Of a DNA stretch of 25,479 bases, positions 1,822 through 25,479 are shown in pieces. The stretch covers positions 1 to 25,479 of the IMG/VR virus record IMGVR_UViG_2531839473_000011; one strand, 5' to 3'. The DNA comes from a virus (taxonomy: Duplodnaviria > Heunggongvirae > Uroviricota > Caudoviricetes). Position numbers and translations under genes: made by a program. Position 1 is the stretch's first letter. Each line of letters begins with the position of its first letter. The notes under the pieces are model-generated. The model was not told the origin of the DNA and made no database searches. It saw only the letters and a list, made by a program, of their open reading frames with translations.

Positions 1822-3194
1822 AACAGGATATCGAAGCGAGCGTTATCGGTGGCTTGCTGATTGGTGGATTAACACCAACTGCCAGTGACGTTCTGGCAAC
1901 GCTGGAGCCGGAAGCGTTTTCAATTCCGCTCTACCGGAAAGCCTTCGAGGTTATCCGCAAGCAGGCGAGAAACAGAAACCTAATCGACGCGCTGATGGTT
2001 GCCGAGGCGTGCGGAGAGGAGCATTTCACGTCAATCCTGATGACCAGCAAAAACTGCCCGAGTGCCGCAAACCTGAAGGGATATGCCGGAATGGTCGCGG
2101 ATAACTATCACCGCCGTCTGGTGCTGGAAATCATGGATGAAATGCGTGAACCAATTCAGAGCGGAACCATCGACGCATCGAGTCAGGCGATGGATGAACT
2201 TGTAAAGCGTCTTTCAGCCATCAGAAAGCCACGTGACGAGGTTAAACCTGTACGGTTAGGGGAAATCATCACCGACTACACTGACACGCTTGACAGGCGT
2301 CTGAGGAACGGAGAAGAGTCCGATACCCTGAAGACCGGAATCGAAGAACTTGATGCCATCACCGGAGGGATGAACGCGGAAGACCTTGTGATAATCGCTG
2401 CTCGTCCTGGTATGGGGAAAACCGAACTGGCGCTGAAGATTGCCGAAGGCGTTGCAAGCCGCGTTATTCCTGGTTCTGACGTCCGGCGCGGAGTGTTGAT
2501 TTTCTCGATGGAAATGAGCGCATTGCAGATTGCAGAGCGAAGCATTGCCAACGCCGGGAGGATGCCGGTTAGCGTGCTGCGAAATCCTGCTTCGATGGAT
2601 GACGAAGGCTGGGCGCGCGTTGCTAACGGCATGAGTCAGCTTGCAGATTTGGATGTATGGGTAGTCGATGCCTCGCGGTTATCGGTCGAAGAAATACGCT
2701 CAATCGCAGAACGGCACAAACAGGAAAATCCAAACCTGTCACTCATCATGGTGGATTATCTTGGCCTGATTGAGAAGCCGAAAGCAGACCGCAACGACCT
2801 CGCAATTGCTCACATCTCCGGAAGCCTGAAGGCGATGGCGAAAGACCTGAAAACGCCAGTTATCTCCCTAAGTCAGCTTTCACGCGATGTTGAGAAGCGA
2901 CCAAACAAACGCCCGACAAACGCAGATTTGCGTGATTCAGGAAGCATTGAACAGGACGCAGACTCAATCATCATGCTCTATCGGGAAGCGGTATATGACG
3001 AGAACAGTAGCGCCGCGCCATTTGCTGAAATCATCGTGACGAAAAACCGTTTTGGCTCACTTGGTACGGTTTACCAGCGGTTCTGCAACGGACACTTTGT
3101 TGCATGTGACCAGGATGAAGCCAGACAGATTTGCACAGCATCAAATGCACCTGCTGCGCGTGGCAGACGATATGCACAAGGGGCTGACGTATGA
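1818..3194 (+). CDS. DnaB-family replicative DNA helicase (P22 gene 12-type)
   Basis: 458 aa with a Walker A motif ([10 protein letters not shown]) and the DnaB C-terminal RecA-like domain pattern. The start overlaps the O stop (ATGA). Confidence 0.85.
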
Positions 3195-3219
3195 CCATCT
3201 ACATCACTGAGCTTGTAAC

Positions 3220-3252
3220 AGGCCTGCTGGTAATCGCAGGCCTTTTTATTTG
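3220..3252 (+). terminator. Rho-independent terminator after the replication genes (position of lambda tR2)
   Basis: Perfect 8-bp stem AGGCCTGC (3220-3227) / GCAGGCCT (3236-3243) with an 8-nt loop, followed by TTTTTATTT. Confidence 0.6.
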
Positions 3253-3266
3253 GGGGAGAGTAAATC

Positions 3267-3473
3267 GTGGTTGAGTTTATGCTCGTCGCACTCAAATGCG
3301 TTGGCGTTGGATGGATTCTTCTGACGTTTTTTATTGTTCTGCATAGCTACATTCGTCTTGTGAATGACGGTAAAGACCCATGGTATACGTTGTTTGGCGC
3401 TGCATTTGTCTGGGTGATTATCGGTGTTATGCCTGTCGCTGTAGCAAAAATGGCGTGGCGTTTTGTGAGTTGA
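3267..3473 (+). CDS. Small hydrophobic protein (68 aa) with two predicted membrane-spanning segments
   Basis: GTG start at 3267 preceded by GGGGGAGAG; an alternative ATG is at 3279. Two hydrophobic stretches (GWILLTFFIVL and AAFVWVIIGVMPVAVA). It sits just downstream of the terminator. Confidence 0.5.
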   Translation: MVEFMLVALKCVGVGWILLTFFIVLHSYIRLVNDGKDPWYTLFGAAFVWVIIGVMPVAVAKMAWRFVS

Positions 3474-3490
3474 ACTGAGGGTAAGTATCG

Positions 3491-3805
3491 ATGGACGAAT
3501 CAAGAAAGCAGTTTGAGGAATACGTTGCCAAAAAATTGAGATTACCATTCGAGATGATAACCGAGGCAAGAAATGGTGATAGGTACTTTGCATTTTCAAG
3601 CATGGATATTCGTCACTCCTTAAATGAGTGGTGGGCTTTATGGCAGGCATCGCGAGCAGCTATTGAAATAACCGCGCCAAAGTTTATCGACAGCAGAGAA
3701 GCATTAGCCAAAGGGTTTACTGTTGATTATTCCAATGGCTTCGGTGATGCAATGGATGCTTATGAGGAAAACATCCGCGCTGCTGGAGTCAAAGTGAAGG
3801 AGTGA
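3491..3805 (+). CDS. Hypothetical protein (104 aa)
   Basis: Intact ORF with local GC visibly lower than its neighbours. No family recognised by eye. Confidence 0.5.
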   Translation: MDESRKQFEEYVAKKLRLPFEMITEARNGDRYFAFSSMDIRHSLNEWWALWQASRAAIEITAPKFIDSREALAKGFTVDYSNGFGDAMDAYEENIRAAGVKVKE

Positions 3806-3807
3806 GT

Positions 3808-3972
3808 ATGAGCGCATACGAAGAAATCATGTTAGCCCTGCGATTCTTTTTCGGTGTGGAAGAAGATGAAAACGTAAATGAGATTATCGGGCAAGACCAT
3901 GACCCGATAGGGACTATTGCAGCTGCACTTGACGATTACAGGAGCGTAAATGGTGAGGAAACTAACGTTTGA
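3808..3972 (+). CDS. Small acidic hypothetical protein (54 aa)
   Basis: ATG at 3808 preceded by GGAGTGAGT. The ORF overlaps the NinB start, consistent with translational coupling. Below the ORF-track cut-off. Confidence 0.35.
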   Translation: MSAYEEIMLALRFFFGVEEDENVNEIIGQDHDPIGTIAAALDDYRSVNGEETNV

Positions 3973-4393
3973 ACTAAGAAGCCCCATCCATCAGCAGAAC
4001 GCCATTCAAGCCATCCAGCAAATTCTTACAGACCCAACCAAACCAATCGTAGTAACCATTCAGGAACGCAACCGCAGCTTAGACCAGAATCGAAAGCTTT
4101 GGGCTTGCCTTGGTGACGTCTCTCGTCAGGTTGAATGGCATGGTCGCTGGCTGGATGCAGAAAGCTGGAAGTGTGTGTTTACCGCAGCATTAAAGCAGCA
4201 GGATGTTGTTCCTAACCTTGCCGGGAATGGCTTTGTGGTAATAGGCCAGTCAACCAGCAGGATGCGTGTAAGCGAATTTGCGGAGCTATTAGAGCTTATA
4301 CAGGCATTCGGTACAGAGCGTGGCGTTAAGTGGTCAGACGAAGCGCGACTGGCTCTGGAGTGGAAAGCGCGATGGGGAGACAGGGCGGCATGA
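3950..4393 (+). CDS. ninB: NinB (Orf-family recombination mediator)
   Basis: 147 aa, near-identical along its length to lambda NinB as I recall it (…[49 protein letters not shown]…). Confidence 0.9.
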
Positions 4394-16677: not shown

Positions 16678-18095
16678 TGCCGATTCAGCAACTTCCGCTT
16701 ATGAAAGGTGTCGGCAAAGACTTTCGAAACGCCGATTATATCGACTATCTGCCAGTGAATATGTTGGCTACACCCAAAGAAATCCTCAACAGCAGCGGAT
16801 ATCTTCGCTCATTCCCGGGCATTGCCAAACGTTCTGATGTGAACGGTATATCGCGCGGCGTCGAATACAACATGGCGCAGAGTGCTGTTTATCGCGTGTG
16901 TGGTGGGAAGCTCTACAAAGGCGAAAGCGAAGTCGGTGATGTTGCCGGAAGTGGTCGCGTATCAATGGCGCATGGTCGGACATCACAGGCGGTAGGCGTT
17001 AATGGTCAACTGGTTGAGTATCGCTATGATGGCACGGTTAAAACCGTCTCAAACTGGCCTACAGACAGCGGATTCACGCAGTATGAGTTAGGTTCGGTTC
17101 GCGACATTACGCGCTTGCGCGGGCGTTATGCGTGGTCAAAAGACGGAACTGATTCATGGTTTATCACTGACCCTGAAGACGAATCGCACCCTGACCGCTA
17201 CAGCGCACAATATCGCGCAGAATCGCAGCCTGACGGCATCATCGGCATCGGAACATGGCGAGACTTCATCGTATGCTTTGGTTCATCAACGATTGAATAT
17301 TTCTCCCTGACGGGTGCAACCACCGTTGGTGCTGCTTTGTATGTCGCACAGCCATCTCTTATGGTGCAGAAAGGCATTGCCGGGACTTACTGCAAAACGC
17401 CATTCGCTGATTCTTATGCGTTCATCAGCAATCCGGCAACGGGTGCGCCGTCTGTATACATCATCGGCTCCGGTCAGGTATCACCAATCGCCAGCGCGAG
17501 CATTGAGAAAATCCTCCGCTCCTACACTGCTGATGAACTGGCTGATGGCGTGATGGAGTCTCTGCGATTTGATGCGCATGAGTTGCTGATTATCCATCTT
17601 CCGCGCCATGTACTTGTGTACGACGCATCTTCAAGCGCTAATGGTCCGCAATGGTGTGTGCTGAAAACAGGCCTGTATGACGATGTGTACCGCGCTATCG
17701 ACTTCATTTTCGAAGGCAATCAGATAACGTGCGGCGATAAACTGGAACCCGTGACCGGGAAATTGCAATTCGACATCAGCAGCCAGTATGGTCTTCAACA
17801 GGAACACCTGCTGTTTACTCCACTCTTCAAAGCAGATAACGCCAGAGTTTTCGACCTTGAAGTTGAATCTTCAACTGGCGTTGCGCAGTATGCTGACCGC
17901 CTGTTCCTCTCTGCAACCACTGACGGCATAAATTATGGGCGTGAGCAGATGATTGAGCAGAATGAACCGTTCGTTTACGACAAACGCGTTTTGTGGAAAC
18001 GAGTAGGGCGCATCAGGAAAAACATTGGTTTCAAATTGCGCGTTATCACGAAGTCACCTGTCACTCTGTCTGGCGCTCAGATAAGGATTGAGTAA
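16677..18095 (+). CDS. Tail accessory protein (P22 gp10-type)
   Basis: 472 aa, same length and position as P22 gp10. Start overlaps the gp4 stop. Confidence 0.8.
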
Positions 18096-18943
18096 TGGCG
18101 GATTCGAATCTCAATGTGCCGGTAATCATTCAGGCTACACGACTCGACACATCAGTCCTTCCACGCAATATCTTCTCGCAGTCATATCTGCTGTACGTTA
18201 TTGCACAGGGCACTGATGTTGGTAACGTGGCTAACAAGGCCAACGAGGCCGGACAGGGCGCTTATGACGCACAAGTCAGGAACGATGAGCAGGATGTGAT
18301 TCTCGCTGACCATGAGCAGCGAATTTCTGCTGCGGAAGCAACGCTTGTTAATCATGAGGAGCGAATCAGCCAGGCAGAATCAACTCTTCAGGACCATGAA
18401 ACACGAATAGCTCAGAATGAAAGCGATATTTCGTCGCTTGACACAAGAGTTCAGTCGCTGGAGTCGCAGGTTTCAGACCATGAAACGCGCATCGATGCTC
18501 TGGAGTATGCCACTACTCGCAAGAAGTCGGAGGTTGTTTACTCTGGCGTATCTGTAACCATCCCGACAGCGCCGACCAACCTTGTTAGCCTACTGAAAAC
18601 TCTCACGCCGTCATCCGGCACGTTGGCACCATTCTTCGACACCGTTAACAACAAGATGGTTGTGTTCAACGAGAACAAAACCTTGTTCTTCAAGCTGTCG
18701 ATCGTCGGGACGTGGCCCAGCGGAACCGCCAACAGGTCAATGCAGCTAACATTTTCCGGTTCTGTTCCTGACACACTGGTAAGCAGTCGTAACTCTGCGA
18801 CAACAACCGATAACATCCTGTTAGCTACGTTCTTCAGCGTGGATAAAGACGGCTTTCTTGCCACAAATGGCAGCGCGTTAACCATTCAGTCGAATGGTGC
18901 GGCGTTTACTGCCACAACCATCAAAATCATTGCGGAGCAGTAA
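18095..18943 (+). CDS. Tail needle protein (gp26-type) with an extended C-terminal domain
   Basis: The N-terminal ~60 aa resemble the P22 gp26 N-terminus as I recall it. This is followed by tandem 14-residue coiled-coil repeats and a C-terminal region unlike P22 gp26. Confidence 0.75.
18305..18514 (+). repeat. Five diverged tandem 42-bp repeats encoding 14-residue units in the tail needle
   Basis: Protein units [14 protein letters not shown] / [14 protein letters not shown] / [14 protein letters not shown] / [14 protein letters not shown] / [14 protein letters not shown]. Confidence 0.6.
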
Positions 18944-20102: not shown

Positions 20103-21398
20103 ATGGCTACTTGGCAAGGATCAAATGGCGGATTGTTAGCTGGTATCGGCGGCGTCAACTCAAACGCTCCGAGCGTAAATGACATCGGCAATACGCTTCA
20201 GCTTATCAGGCAGAACAATGATATTGAGCGTTCAGGCGCTAACAATGTTGGGCTGACTGCTTTGCAAGGTCTTTCAGGTATTGCAGGGGTGTTTCAGCAG
20301 GAAAAGCAGGCTCAGCGGCAGAAAGAATTTCAGCAGGCGTACGCTAATGCTTATGCGTCTGGTGATCGCGGTGCTTTGCGTCAGTTGGCTACTCAATATC
20401 CAGACCAGATTGAATCCGTTCGTAAAGGCATGGGATTCATTGATGAAGATCAGCGTAATTCTATCGGCACCTTAGCGGCTGGCGCACGCCTTGCGTCATC
20501 GTCTCCAGAAGCAATGCAATCATGGCTGCAAAACAACGCCAAGGAACTGACTCGCGTCGGTGTTGACCCTAACAGCGTTGCTCAGATGTATCAGCAGAAC
20601 CCTTCAGGATTTGGTGAGTTTGTTGATCACCTTGGGATGGCTGCGCTTGGTCCGATTGATTACTTCAATGTTCAGGACAAGATGGCTGGTCGTGAAATTG
20701 ACCGAGGCAGACTGGCAGAGACAATCCGCAGCAATCAGGCCGGAGAAGCACTAACAGCTCGAGGTCAGGACATCCAGATACGTGGACAGAACATCAGCGC
20801 ACAGAATGCTGCTCTTTCCCGCGAAATACAAAGAGCAGAATTACAAGAAAAGGCTCTGGACAGACAAATAGCCAGAGAAAGCAATCAGTTAAAGCTTGAA
20901 GAGCTAAAACAGAAACAGGCAGATGTTCGGCAAAAGGCTGACATAGCCCGCGCTGACAGGCAGGCCGCTGCTCAGGGTGCAGTTGATACGTTCAGCACCG
21001 CGCTTGATTCTCTCAACGAGATAGAGCAAAGCCCCGGCCTTTCAAAAGCAGTAGGAATTCGCTCAGCGTTTCCGACAGTTCCTGGCTCTGATGCGGCTAA
21101 CTTTGAAGCAAGGCTCGACACCTTTAAAGCTCAAACATTCCTTCCTATGGTGCAGTCCCTGAAGGGTATGGGCGCTCTTTCAGATGCTGAGGGTAAAAAA
21201 TTATCCGATGCGGTTGGTGCCCTAAGCCCCAAAATGAGTGAAAAGGCTTTTCGTGACTCTATCGGAAAGATTAGAAATCAGCTTGAAAGCAAGTTGAGCA
21301 CTGTTAAAAAACAGTTTGATTATCAGGAGCCGGTGCAGAATATTCCAAGGCAACAATCTACTACTGGCAGTAACTTTTCTTCACTATGGGGTGATTAA
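20103..21398 (+). CDS. Ejection protein, gp20-type
   Basis: 431 aa, first of two large low-complexity proteins after gp7. Assigned by position and composition. Confidence 0.55.
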   Translation: MATWQGSNGGLLAGIGGVNSNAPSVNDIGNTLQLIRQNNDIERSGANNVGLTALQGLSGIAGVFQQEKQAQRQKEFQQAYANAYASGDRGALRQLATQYPDQIESVRKGMGFIDEDQRNSIGTLAAGARLASSSPEAMQSWLQNNAKELTRVGVDPNSVAQMYQQNPSGFGEFVDHLGMAALGPIDYFNVQDKMAGREIDRGRLAETIRSNQAGEALTARGQDIQIRGQNISAQNAALSREIQRAELQEKALDRQIARESNQLKLEELKQKQADVRQKADIARADRQAAAQGAVDTFSTALDSLNEIEQSPGLSKAVGIRSAFPTVPGSDAANFEARLDTFKAQTFLPMVQSLKGMGALSDAEGKKLSDAVGALSPKMSEKAFRDSIGKIRNQLESKLSTVKKQFDYQEPVQNIPRQQSTTGSNFSSLWGD

Positions 21399-23395
21399 TG
21401 GCTAAAGCATGGAAAGATGTTATCGCCTCTCCACAGTATCAGGCGTTAGCACCAGAACAAAAAGCGCAGGCTCAGGAGCAATACTTCAATGAAGTCGTGG
21501 CCCCGCAAGCCGGAGAAAATGCAGAGCAGGCTAAGCAAGCTTTCTATGCAGCCTATCCATTGCCATCTGTGCAGCCAGTGGAGACACAGCAACCAGTAGC
21601 ACAGCAACAACCACAGCAAAGTGGATTTATGTCTGATCTTGGTGAAGCAGTGAAAGAGACTGGTCGCGGACTGGTGCAGGCTGGCGTGAACGTGGCAAAC
21701 ATACCTGCATCAGTTGCCGATGCTGTAACAAGCGCGGCTGCATGGGCTGGCGGTAAACTCGGCATTGGCGATGGAACATATCAACCCGCGCCACGAGTAA
21801 CAACGCATGGATTAGAGCAGGACTTTGGCCTTCAGCAAGGTGCGCTGACTCCACAAACGACAGAGGGCAGGGTATTTGCTGAAGCATTGCCTTACCTCAC
21901 ACCTGCCGGCGTTGAGAGAGCGGCAACACAGGCACCAACACTTGCTGGTCGAATTGCTCAGGGTGCAACTCGCCTTCTCGCTGAAAACGCAGTTGGATCA
22001 CTTGCTGCAAACAGTGTGAAAGATGATGCGGAAGCACTAGCCACCGACTTAGGCGTTGGCGTTCTGGCTGGCGGAGCTATTAACGCTGCCGGACGTGGAT
22101 TAGGTGCTGCTTATCGTGGAGTTCGTGGTGCGATAGCGCCAGAAGCGCAACAGGCTATCAGGTTTGCAGAGCGTGAAGGAGTGCCTCTGCACACCACAGA
22201 CCTGTTACAACCTACTTCCCGCGTCGGAAAAATGGCGCAGACTACAGCAGAAAATATCCCTCTGGCTGGCACAAGCGGAATGAGAGCAACGCAACAGGAA
22301 GCGAGAAGCCAGTTGGTGCAGAGATTTGCTGATAAATTCGGTGAGTATGATCCAGCGGTTGTTATTGACAGCCTTAAAGCGAAAACATCAGGAATTCGTC
22401 GTGCTGCCGGTAATCGACTGGAGCAGGTTCAGAATGCTATGGCTGGAGTAAACATTCAGCCTGTGCGAGCAATTCAGCAGATTGATACTGAGATATCTAA
22501 CCTGCAGAAGCTTGGTAAGGTCGCTGATAACGAGACGATTTCAAAACTTCAATCCTATCGTGATGAGCTTATTCGCAATGCTGGTCCTGATGGTCCGGTA
22601 AATCTGGATTTGAAGCAATTAAGCGATCTGCGCAGCCAGTTCAGAATGGACGTGAAGGGGGAACGACCAGTGTTACCAAACCGTTCCGATGCTGCCATTC
22701 AGCGCGTTTACAAGGCGATGACAGACGATATCAATGGTGCCATTGGTCAGAATCTTGGCAATGATACTCTCCGTAAATATCAGCAGGCCAATGCCGTCTA
22801 CGCTGACGAAGCGGCGAAACTAAAGAATACCAGGCTGAAGAATGTTCTCATGAAAGGCGACCTGACACCGGAAGTTGTCAACAACATGCTATTCAGCAAG
22901 AACAAATCGGAAATTAAGACGCTGTATAACTCAGTTGGTCGTGTTGGCAGGGCGCAAATGCGCAATGGCATCATTGGAAAGGCGATGGAGAAATCTGGCG
23001 GATCCCCTGACCAGTTCCTTCGGCAGCTTAACATCCTGCAAAACCAGACTGGCATCACATTTAAGGGGCAGGACGCTGCTTATCTGAAAGGATTAAAAAA
23101 CTACCTGCAATCCACGCAGCAGGCTGCAAAAGCGGCAGTAACAACACCCACAGGGCAGCAAACTATCCCGTTCATAATTGGGTATGGGACGGCAATGAAC
23201 CCGGCGACAACTGGCGCAGCAGTAAGCTACGGACTTCTTACTCGCGCCTATGAGAGCGAGCCATTCAGAAATGCAATGCTACGAATGGCAAATACCCCAC
23301 GCGGATCAACAGCGTTTGAGAAAGCCATGCAGCAGGCACAAAAGGTAATTAACGCTATGACGCAGGGGGCTAAGTCTGATGCGTTGTCAGAATAG
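21398..23395 (+). CDS. Ejection protein, gp16-type
   Basis: 665 aa, immediately upstream of the tailspike. Assigned by position and composition. Confidence 0.55.
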   Translation: MAKAWKDVIASPQYQALAPEQKAQAQEQYFNEVVAPQAGENAEQAKQAFYAAYPLPSVQPVETQQPVAQQQPQQSGFMSDLGEAVKETGRGLVQAGVNVANIPASVADAVTSAAAWAGGKLGIGDGTYQPAPRVTTHGLEQDFGLQQGALTPQTTEGRVFAEALPYLTPAGVERAATQAPTLAGRIAQGATRLLAENAVGSLAANSVKDDAEALATDLGVGVLAGGAINAAGRGLGAAYRGVRGAIAPEAQQAIRFAEREGVPLHTTDLLQPTSRVGKMAQTTAENIPLAGTSGMRATQQEARSQLVQRFADKFGEYDPAVVIDSLKAKTSGIRRAAGNRLEQVQNAMAGVNIQPVRAIQQIDTEISNLQKLGKVADNETISKLQSYRDELIRNAGPDGPVNLDLKQLSDLRSQFRMDVKGERPVLPNRSDAAIQRVYKAMTDDINGAIGQNLGNDTLRKYQQANAVYADEAAKLKNTRLKNVLMKGDLTPEVVNNMLFSKNKSEIKTLYNSVGRVGRAQMRNGIIGKAMEKSGGSPDQFLRQLNILQNQTGITFKGQDAAYLKGLKNYLQSTQQAAKAAVTTPTGQQTIPFIIGYGTAMNPATTGAAVSYGLLTRAYESEPFRNAMLRMANTPRGSTAFEKAMQQAQKVINAMTQGAKSDALSE

Positions 23396-23559
23396 CTTTG
23401 CAAACACCAGGAACGTGCAAAAACCAAATATATAGAGCGCAATATTCAACAGATCTCTTTGCATAGACTCATCTCATAATTAACAAATCATAACTGACAT
23501 TAGTGCAATGCTGGGCAAGTTGCATCTTGTTCGGCATTGCTACGTCCGGAGCAAATTAA

Positions 23560-25479
23560 ATGACAGACATTACAGCCAATGTTGTAGTGAGTATGCCTTC
23601 GCAACTCTTCACTATGGCGCGTTCTTTTAAAGCCGTAGCCAATGGTAAAATTTATATCGGTAAAATTGACACTGACCCGGTAAATCCTGAAAACCAGATT
23701 CAGGTTTATGTGGAGAACGAAGACGGCTCTCACGTTCCTGTATCGCAGCCAATCATCATTAACGCTGCTGGATATCCGGTATATAACGGACAAATTGCCA
23801 AGTTCGTCACTGTGCAAGGTCACTCGATGGCTGTGTATGACGCATTTAATGCACGACAGTTCTACCACCCAAATGTACTCAAGTACGATCCAGATCAATT
23901 CAAGCAGCAGCTAGCAAGCTCAGAAGATGGAATGGGTGACGCACTAGTTGCAGTTAAGCAGCCATATATCGGCTCAATAGCTTTAACTCAACATGATAAA
24001 AATACCAACTTCATTTCAGCCAAGGATTTCGGTGCAACAGCTGACGGAACTCTGCATCCACTCAGCGAGAAATTCTCCACACTATCAGCGGCGCAGGCTG
24101 TTTATCCATTCGTAACATCACTAACTCAGTCTCTTGACTATGCAGGCATACAGGCCGCAATTAATACAGGGCGGAATGTATTATTGACATCTGGAACTTA
24201 CTTCGTAAATGCAACGATAGAGATGAATTCAAACTGCACAATAAATGGCGAAACAAACAGCAACATAAATAGGCCGGAAACTTTCATAGCAGTAATAGGA
24301 AATATAGCTTGTTTCCATTACCACGCAGCGTTTAATACAATAAATATTGAAAATGTCTATATTTTTTACGATGGAGGACGCCCTACATCACCTACTGGCA
24401 ATGATGGTAAAATTGGCATTCTAATTGATGGAGGAACTACTTCACCAGGCGTTATGCACATTAAAAATGTTGAGGTTGATGGTGCATGGTGGGCCATATA
24501 TGATGACTCTGGAAATTACCTAACAAAGTATACCCAGGTATGGGCGAGGAGAGTTGCGCATGGTTTCTATAAGGCGAACGGAACGACAATACAGTGGGAT
24601 ACATGTTATGTGCTGGATGCAGCACAGGCATGGTATGTTGTAAATTGCCTGTCTCCTCAGCTAATAAACTGTGCAGGAGACCAGATCACAGTTGACGGGT
24701 CGCAATATACATTTGATTCCTCAGGGTTATATTTTTCTGGATGTAAGTGTCTTACTATTACAGGGTATGATGGTGAGTCTAATATAATAAAAAATACAAA
24801 TGGAATTACTGCGTCGTATATAAAACTTAATGATACTATTGCCCATATATCAGGATTGGCCGGGCATGGAAACTCAATGCAAACAACGGGGAGTGGGACA
24901 GCAGCATTTATCTTTGCAACAGGCACAAGCATTGTTAACATAAAATCAAGTACCGATAGCTTCCTTGATAGCGAATCAATAACCTACACTGGCTCTGGAT
25001 ACCCAAACACATTGCTGACAGACTCAACAGCAAAAATAATTGCTGAGGGATGCCGGTTTAAGGCTCCGACTGGTGGGACTCCTGTAATATCAACTTACAG
25101 CACAGGGAATGGAGTATTTACTGACTGCTCATTAACTGGGACGCAAACTTCAGGCTCATATGTTGAATCACGAAGCTCTGCAGGTAATCAGTTGCCAGCA
25201 GTGTACACAGCGAAAGGAACTCAGGCTGTTGCAGCTAACGTAGCAACTACGTTGTTTGAACTGCCAAATAGCCAAGGGATGTACCTGATAAGCGTTTGGG
25301 CAGAAAGCAGTGGAACAAATTTCTCTTCGCTTCAGCTTGCCATGTGGGACGGAACAACACTTACTTTAACTCCGCTTAAGTCAGGAGGGTTGATATCATT
25401 TACAGTGACAGGAAGGATTGTAACCATCACAAGCCAGGGAACAACAACATTTAACTGGACATACACCAAGGCAGGGTGA
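23560..25479 (+). CDS. Tailspike protein: P22-type N-terminal head-binding domain fused to a different receptor-binding domain
   Basis: The first ~110 aa resemble the P22 gp9 head-binding domain as I recall it. The remainder is G/S/T/N-rich with a KDFGATADG-type motif seen in beta-helix glycanases. The ORF ends with TGA at the last three bases of the window. Confidence 0.85.

Follow-up and report, generated by a model that had tools for sequence, protein, structure and literature searches.

A P22-like prophage tailspike with an exchanged receptor-binding module associated with the Escherichia coli O2/O50 O-antigen cluster

Introduction

The tailspikes of P22-like phages are homotrimers present in six copies per tail, and in P22 and Sf6 the N-terminal domain of each trimeric spike is seated on the tail hub and the O-antigen is bound along the helix and cleaved. 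The substrate of the Sf6 spike has a backbone of three rhamnoses and one N-acetylglucosamine (Rha3-GlcNAc), similar in make-up to the O2/O50 O-antigens of Escherichia coli. The gene analysed here belongs to this class and closes a 25,479-nucleotide (nt) stretch of viral DNA (the window: IMG/VR record IMGVR_UViG_2531839473_000011, positions 1 to 25,479; Caudoviricetes). The open reading frame (ORF) at 23560-25479 is a real gene; its product, equivalent to gp9/gp14, is the tailspike of a temperate E. coli phage of the P22-like (Lederbergvirus) type. A preliminary description of the window had characterised this tailspike as a chimera with a low-GC receptor-binding domain. The explanation that best covers the whole of the evidence, and that is probably right, is a P22-like tailspike carrying an exchanged module directed at the O2/O50 O-antigen.

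A closely similar protein, the receptor-binding protein (RBP) 611R6_RBP, has been placed in RBP subtype 'O2' together with the RBP of a Uetakevirus prophage (Pas et al. 2023, Virol J 20:174, PMC10408124). That assignment was made in silico at the level 'HGT' and comprises two proteins; the subtype criteria are at least 30% amino-acid (aa) identity over the receptor-binding domain (RBD) and one host serogroup (PMC10408124). The O2 repeat has a main chain of three L-Rha and one GlcNAc with a branch of 3-acetamido-3,6-dideoxy-D-galactose (D-Fuc3NAc); a point mutation in fdtB accounts for the missing branch of O50 (PMC7685785). The two gene clusters are more than 99% identical (PMC5293828), and the repeat units contain only Rha, GlcNAc and Fuc3NAc (PMC7685785, PMC5293828).

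Results and discussion

An exchanged receptor-binding module behind a P22-type anchor

Comparison with related phages demonstrates that the tailspike gene is chimeric, joining a conserved anchor to a horizontally exchanged receptor-binding module that begins at codons ~114-122. Residues 1-113 give a full-length Pfam match to PF09008 and match the N-terminal domains of Sf6 gp14 and the P22 tailspike in the PDB with E-values of 1e-43 to 1e-74, so the earlier estimate of a head-binding domain of about 110 codons was correct. In a binned alignment with HZ41, IME10, HK620 and Sf6, nucleotide identity breaks down at about 23905, and 27 other P22-like phages are 82-95% identical over nt 1 to ~340 of the gene only, with alignment ends at about 215-365. 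Homologues of the module that carry heterologous anchors begin to align at query residues 110-117, and at least four different N-terminal anchors precede homologous modules: the P22 head-binding domain, a TSP1/gp66-type domain (PF18668), a T7 tail-fibre N-domain (PF03906) and a 215-residue anchor without a Pfam match. The 611R6 gene, the sole full-length match to the tailspike gene in the phage database, differs from the window at 44 of 339 nt in the anchor (87% identity) and at 10 nt in codons 114-122, where the last differences fall at residues 119-122, and at no position over the final 1227 nt. A similar division was drawn by Pas et al. 2023, who set the anchor/RBD boundary of 611R6 at aa 124 (PMC10408124). 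The identity collapse, the several anchors found before the same module and the 611R6 allele bear out the proposal that the receptor-binding module was swapped in. The phage phiv205-1, whose host is an avian pathogenic E. coli, was considered as a lead and set aside, as it shares only the first 215 nt of the gene and has a K1-specific spike.

The module also occupies more than one genomic setting. Together with the acyltransferase gene that follows it, the tailspike gene is found at the torT side (EFF60, PSJ-23), at argW/yfdC (611R6, FT130) and at a third site (SB0258h1), behind differing upstream genes, with or without arc, and also within visibly degraded prophages. The receptor-binding part is itself divided by a second mosaic boundary at about residue 231 (24253). 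About 18 proteins, many of which have PF12708 (pectate-lyase-like), are 53-66% identical to residues 117-231 and do not align over the rest of their length, and this sub-module holds the only similarity to the structures of LKA1 gp49, phi297 gp27 and Sf6.

Association of the module with the O2/O50 O-antigen cluster

Among 5426 complete E. coli genomes, the module is confined to strains with the O2/O50 O-antigen cluster. Its DNA is present in eight genomes, always at 99% identity or more, and all eight have the O2/O50 wzy, a test that does not separate O2 from O50 (a joint query returned 133 records and 141 places, two places per carrier). The cluster itself is present in 133 of the 5426, which gives a hypergeometric P of about 1e-13 with strain relatedness ignored. 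A sister module, 46% identical to the first, shows the same distribution, with all seven of its carriers among the same 133 genomes. The 13 genomes with one or both modules trace back to swine effluent and river water, to chickens and a migratory bird, to humans and cattle, and to enterotoxigenic E. coli (ETEC) of pigs, and in the pig ETEC strains the sister module lies behind a P22 anchor. Strain EFF60 encodes exactly the same tailspike protein as the window, and its O-antigen cluster contains rml and fdt genes together with wzx and wzy named 'O2/O50 family' by PGAP. With 8/8 and 7/7 carriers of the O2/O50 type against 133/5426 overall, the suggestion that the module is tied to a host surface polysaccharide is supported.

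Measured by the 'O2' subtype definition, the window RBD clusters with 611R6_RBP, from which it differs by 3 aa over residues 114-639, and the O2/O50 wzy is present in 8/8 and 7/7 carriers where at least 90% of host strains are called for as O2. The present result agrees with the O2 assignment of Pas et al. 2023 and broadens it. A further candidate for a serotype link, SU57, has a 39%-identical module and proved uninformative, its host ECOR57 being O-non-typeable.

Two of the O2/O50 genomes, NZ_CP169309.1 (MFDS1019527) and NZ_CP040090.1 (FT130), hold both of the 46%-identical modules. These lie on two different prophage types, each adjoining its own acyltransferase gene, one with an SGNH domain and one without. 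In the O-antigen region of EFF60 (locus L008, 1-399 and 7622-11750), an fdtC-like N-acetyltransferase gene is annotated as two partial pseudogenes; with this gene split, the O-antigen of EFF60 may resemble O50 in having no Fuc3NAc branch. Copies of ISAs1 and a lipoteichoic acid-synthase-family gene are located between its O-antigen cluster and gnd.

Base composition of the tailspike gene

The composition of the gene had been described as turning strongly AT-rich from about 23900, and in this respect the description did not hold. Total GC is 43.9% in codons 1-110 and 42.6% in the remainder, so a sharp step at 23900 is rejected, and in total GC the gene comes close to the uniformity that the preliminary description had set against its own proposal. 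What stands is that the whole gene is low in GC and that GC at third codon positions (GC3) falls along it. Low values are found ahead of the junction too, in the spacer and the head-binding part (total GC 0.440 over codons 1-113), compared with 49.8% elsewhere in the window, and gene and spacer form the lowest-GC stretch of the 25.5 kb: all ten of the lowest 1575-bp windows overlap the gene, with GC of 0.415-0.425 against a mean of 0.495 (sd 0.020). The minima, at about 38%, lie at 24100-24500 and 24700-25000. The head-binding domain has a GC3 of 0.434, codons 114-231 one of 0.373 and codons 232-544 one of 0.319, compared with 0.521 +/- 0.046 (minimum 0.433) in the other genes of the window. 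GC at second codon positions climbs from 0.33 to 0.49 across the junction as GC at first and third positions drops, and total GC shows no step because this rise, which reflects the G/S/T-rich composition, hides the fall at the other two positions. Smaller dips elsewhere in the window reach 0.43 at 21100-21500, near the boundary of the gene-20-type and gene-16-type genes, and 0.46 at 3001-4000.

The further proposal of a lower-GC source is not established: the module is an exchangeable cassette of foreign composition, and no low-GC donor organism is demonstrated. Module GC3 is low on two unrelated backbones, at 0.35 here and 0.30 in a prophage type encoding a 751-aa relative, and its composition is therefore foreign to both; in the latter type the anchor has a GC3 of 0.50, so that a sharp GC3 step does mark the module there. 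No low-GC donor was found among the named relatives, all of which are Enterobacteriaceae (E. coli, Citrobacter, Enterobacter), and a long-standing shared cassette pool fits the data equally well. As an account of composition only, we lean slightly towards low GC being a standing property of the enterobacterial pool of RBP and O-antigen-modification cassettes, combined with an N/S/T/I-rich beta-helix, rather than the mark of a recent low-GC import. This accords with the lack of a total-GC step at the junction, with the enterobacterial origin of every named relative, and with the GC of 0.42-0.44 in the head-binding domains of the window gene, HK620 and Sf6 and of 0.44-0.46 in the HK620 and Sf6 modules; low values also occur in the sister module (0.41), both acyltransferase genes (0.37-0.39) and the O2/O50 wzx-wzy region (0.32). 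Against it stands the module GC3 of 0.32-0.35, which differs from the backbone value of 0.52 at synonymous sites, so that amino-acid content alone is an insufficient explanation and the module is not equilibrated with the backbone.

Predicted fold of the receptor-binding part

The AlphaFold2 (AF2) monomer, computed from 46 aligned sequences, has a predicted template modelling score of 0.70 and a predicted local distance difference test score (pLDDT) above 90 on 370 residues, mostly above 90 over residues 150-639; the low values at residues 1-139 arise because the N-termini in the alignment are mixed and do not signal disorder. For residues ~150-639 the model confidently predicts a long right-handed parallel beta-helix followed by an all-beta C-terminal domain (beta-sandwich). 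The top Foldseek matches are the Sf6, LKA1, phi297 and P22 tailspikes, and fold searches also return pectate-lyase-like beta-helices. A predicted quaternary structure of 611R6_RBP has been shown by Pas et al. 2023 (PMC10408124). The G/S/T/N content of residues 114-639 is 39%, versus 23% +/- 5% across the remaining 21 genes. Both features that had been read from the translation, a beta-helix-type protein after the anchor and its richness in G/S/T/N, are thereby confirmed. Conserved residues of the C-terminal domain across the module family include W580, T630, W633 and K637. The module matches PHROG 8649 with an E-value of 2.4e-280 over profile positions 215-743 of 743, and in sequence and profile searches no characterised tailspike was matched over the helix body, in line with the preliminary description, which did not recognise the domain.

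Proposed receptor binding and cleavage

By analogy with P22 and Sf6, the head-binding domain would anchor trimeric spikes to the tail hub. The spike is expected to bind the O2/O50 O-polysaccharide along the groove of the helix and probably to cleave the chain hydrolytically as an endoglycosidase, which would bring the virion to the outer membrane and the needle and ejection proteins to their site of action. Because O2 and O50 contain no uronic acid, beta-elimination by a lyase mechanism is unlikely and hydrolysis is expected, provided that the receptor is O2/O50. Within the module family, in which identity falls to as little as 31%, D315, D374 and E406 never vary, D404 and D466 hardly do, and many aromatic residues are also conserved. 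About 30 residues separate D374 from D404/E406 on predicted neighbouring coils, a spacing that resembles that of the catalytic pairs of Sf6, HK620 and P22. Direct transfer of catalytic residues from Sf6 failed, as the hhalign alignment ends at about residue 242 (template ~235), short of the E366/D399 region.

It is improbable that the spike binds O2/O50 without enzymatic activity or deacetylates the chain instead of cutting it. Such a spike would account for the absence of a catalytic motif recognised by any library and for the homology to the Sf6 endorhamnosidase stopping before its catalytic coils, but it leaves unexplained the invariant acidic residues on successive coils, which persist despite divergence to 31% identity. 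To our knowledge, moreover, every characterised P22-like tailspike (P22, Sf6, HK620, CUS-3) is an enzyme, and the tailspike esterases known to us have SGNH folds, not beta-helices; the haloed plaques of SU57, with its 39%-identical module, are weak evidence in the same direction. A capsular (K) polysaccharide that often accompanies O2, such as K1 or K5, as the target of a lyase or other depolymerase is very improbable indeed, given the association with the O2/O50 wzy in 8/8 and 7/7 genomes, the diverse sources of the carriers, which are unlikely to share one K type, the O-antigen-type acyltransferase genes following both modules and the lack of sequence similarity to endosialidases or the K5 lyase.

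Several points weigh against the proposed O2/O50-cleaving tailspike and its seroconverting partner. The serogroup link is a correlation among lysogens, and its P value overstates independence because some carriers are probably clonal, for example four ETEC17xx strains. The helix body has no Pfam, NCBIfam or PDB match and no named function in Pfam, NCBIfam, PHROGs or PDB searches, and PHROG 8649 is annotated 'unknown function'. The residues D374, D404 and E406 are candidate catalytic residues chosen by conservation and spacing only. Binding and cleavage of O2/O50 are predictions, and a literature search found no experimentally characterised O2-specific tailspike. Finally, the window ends on the base that the tailspike gene shares with the acyltransferase gene, which thus lies beyond it, and the substrate of that enzyme is assumed.

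The downstream acyltransferase gene

In EFF60, the coding sequence of an acyltransferase (PF01757, E-value 1e-23) starts on the final base of the tailspike coding sequence (sequence GGGTGATGAAA). An Acyl_transf_3 gene is located directly 3' of the tailspike gene in all eight complete genomes and in 611R6, as would be expected of a seroconverting pair, and the sister module is likewise followed by a gene of this family with an added SGNH domain (Acyl_transf_3+SGNH). In the five loci inspected (EFF60, 611R6, SB0258h1, PSJ-23 and FT130) the product is an OafA/YrhL-type protein of 370-374 aa encoded at a GC of 0.39, and the ATG-TGA overlap is present in four of them, the start in PSJ-23 being annotated 12 nt after the stop. 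By analogy with the Oac protein of Sf6, the enzyme probably O-acetylates the O-antigen of the lysogen, and a lysogen modified in this way would resist superinfection by other phages with that receptor, the protection that Oac provides in the case of Sf6. Literature searches turned up no description of O-acetylated E. coli O2. The PSJ-23 and FT130 prophages are heavily deleted remnants in which ejection genes are truncated and morphogenesis genes are gone, and the tailspike-acyltransferase pair is intact in both; such retention suggests that the pair is under selection, with the acyltransferase as the most plausible target.

A more far-reaching and doubtful interpretation makes the helix body the founder of an uncharacterised glycoside-hydrolase family cleaving the rhamnose-rich O2/O50 backbone, with the acyltransferase producing an undescribed, protective O-acetylated O2 variant and the two module clades, which have separate acyltransferases and at times share a genome, reflecting an arms race over acetylation state.

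Genomic context of the tailspike gene

The DNA of the window comes from the late region of a P22-like prophage, and its backbone is 95-96% identical to the Lederbergviruses HZ41 and IME10 up to nt 23840-23897. The genes 5' of the tailspike gene encode gp10, an Sf6-type needle with a knob, a DUF2824 protein in the gp14 position, gp7 and the gp20 translocase, these five being assigned by Pfam matches, and a 665-aa protein in the gp16 position that has no Pfam match and was placed by synteny. Because homologues of gp10, needle, gp14, gp7, gp20 and gp16 precede it at the end of the late operon, the ORF is in the tailspike position. From 18943 to its end the window is 98.6% identical to EFF60, with 100% identity over the last 2 kb. 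The features of the tailspike region are listed in Table 1.

Table 1. Coordinates of the tailspike gene, its parts and the adjoining features (window positions unless stated otherwise)
Feature	Position	Strand	Remarks
Gene-16-type ejection protein gene	21398-23395		Upstream of the spacer; assigned by position
Spacer, gene-16-type gene to tailspike	23396-23559	+	Sf6-like, 164 bp, without immI (mnt/arc/ant)
Tailspike ORF	23560-25479	+	639 aa; TGA forms the last three bases of the window
Head-binding (virion-anchor) domain	23560-23898	+	Codons 1-113; PF09008, E-value 1.6e-64
Recombination junction	23899-23925	+	Codons ~114-122; identity collapse at ~23905
Neck and first beta-helix coil	23899-24252	+	Codons 114-231; widely shared sub-module, second boundary at ~residue 231
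Beta-helix body	24253-25191	+	Codons 232-~544, C-terminal limit approximate; presumed O-antigen binding/cleavage groove
C-terminal all-beta domain	25192-25476	+	Codons ~545-639, boundary approximate; predicted strands (AF2) at 551-638, pLDDT 92-96
TGA stop codon	25477-25479	+	Last base is the first base of the downstream acyltransferase ATG
Acyltransferase gene	EFF60 locus L002, 9580-10704	Co-oriented with tailspike	Beyond the end of the window

The spacer is nearly identical in Sf6 and EFF60, with 29-30 of 30 identities in most 30-nt bins between 23400 and 23513. The exceptions are the bin at 23430, with 23/30 identities to Sf6 and 26/30 to EFF60, and the stretch 23514-23537, where the values fall to 21/30 and 25/30, respectively. 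In the same binned alignment, the spacer is unrelated to the corresponding sequence of 611R6, HZ41 and HK620. The arc and/or ant genes are found upstream of the same module in 611R6, SB0258h1, PSJ-23 and FT130, and the window has no immI. A scan of 23000-25479 returned no promoter-like, terminator-like or Rfam match. An antisense ORF on the minus strand (23500-23898, 132 aa, TTG start) lies wholly within the conserved spacer and anchor and is probably a chance ORF. Further upstream, the tail needle gene (18095-18943) encodes a 282-aa protein of the Sf6 type with the C-terminal knob PF16532, where EFF60 has a 233-aa protein; identity to EFF60 breaks at about 18315, within the needle gene, which marks another mosaic joint.

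Significance

A modular P22-like tailspike is ordinary, and its architecture, the mechanism of exchange and the O2 assignment are already in the literature. The present locus is of interest mainly for applications, as the source of a reagent or enzyme specific for O2, and because it may seroconvert a serogroup of clinical importance, O2 being a leading serogroup in extra-intestinal pathogenic E. coli (ExPEC) and in avian pathogenic strains. Typing, antigen capture and use as an anti-virulence enzyme are conceivable for a spike that recognises O2/O50 and probably cuts it, and the linked acyltransferase may alter the antigen targeted by vaccines and antisera. A new hydrolase family and an O-acetylated O2, if true, would bear on serotyping and on O2-containing ExPEC glycoconjugate vaccines.

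Comparison with known systems

Among the structural matches to the module are the AlgE4 A-module (2PYG), the RbmB lyase (9OZD) and CBA120 TSP2 (5W6P), which are 13-19% identical to it and have no sequence-level match. AlgE4 and RbmB act on uronic-acid polymers, whereas O2/O50 is without uronic acid. LKA1 gp49 (4RU4) and phi297 gp27 (4RU5) of Pseudomonas phages do match in sequence, at residues ~146-254 only, where the helix starts. They differ from the window protein in host and polysaccharide and in a structural identity of 12-18%, and a test of homology over the whole helix failed.

The Sf6 tailspike gp14 (an endorhamnosidase; PDB 2VBK, 7SG7) shares more with the window protein. The alignment covers the head-binding domain and the neck as far as residue 166, with an E-value of 8.9e-74; the two proteins share their overall architecture, the spacers before the two genes are nearly identical and an O-acetylase gene follows the spike gene. 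Over the helix body there is, in contrast, no detectable sequence similarity, the structural alignments giving 12-14% identity, and oac of Sf6 lies on the opposite strand, whereas the acyltransferase gene of the window type is co-oriented and overlaps the stop codon.

The 751-aa 'phage tail protein' of O2/O50 prophages such as P0054 carries the sister module, whose 45-46% identity runs from query residue 117 through to the C-terminus. Like the window protein, it has a strict association with O2/O50, a low GC3 (0.30) and an O-antigen acyltransferase gene after the spike gene. It differs in its 215-residue anchor, which is unrelated and has no Pfam match, in a backbone with T7_gp14-like core proteins and in its acyltransferase gene, which is convergent and encodes an extra SGNH domain. 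The prophage that encodes it is probably of the epsilon15/phiV10 (Uetakevirus) type.

The closest described system is 611R6_RBP (URC09205.1) of vB_EcoP-611R6 (ON470589.1), which is a predicted prophage rather than an isolated phage and whose O2 label was derived in silico from two proteins. It differs from the window in its 87%-identical head-binding domain and in having arc and ant upstream, in a region that is unrelated. It has the same length of 639 aa, a receptor-binding part that is 99.4% identical at the nucleotide level, and the same acyltransferase gene 3' of the tailspike.

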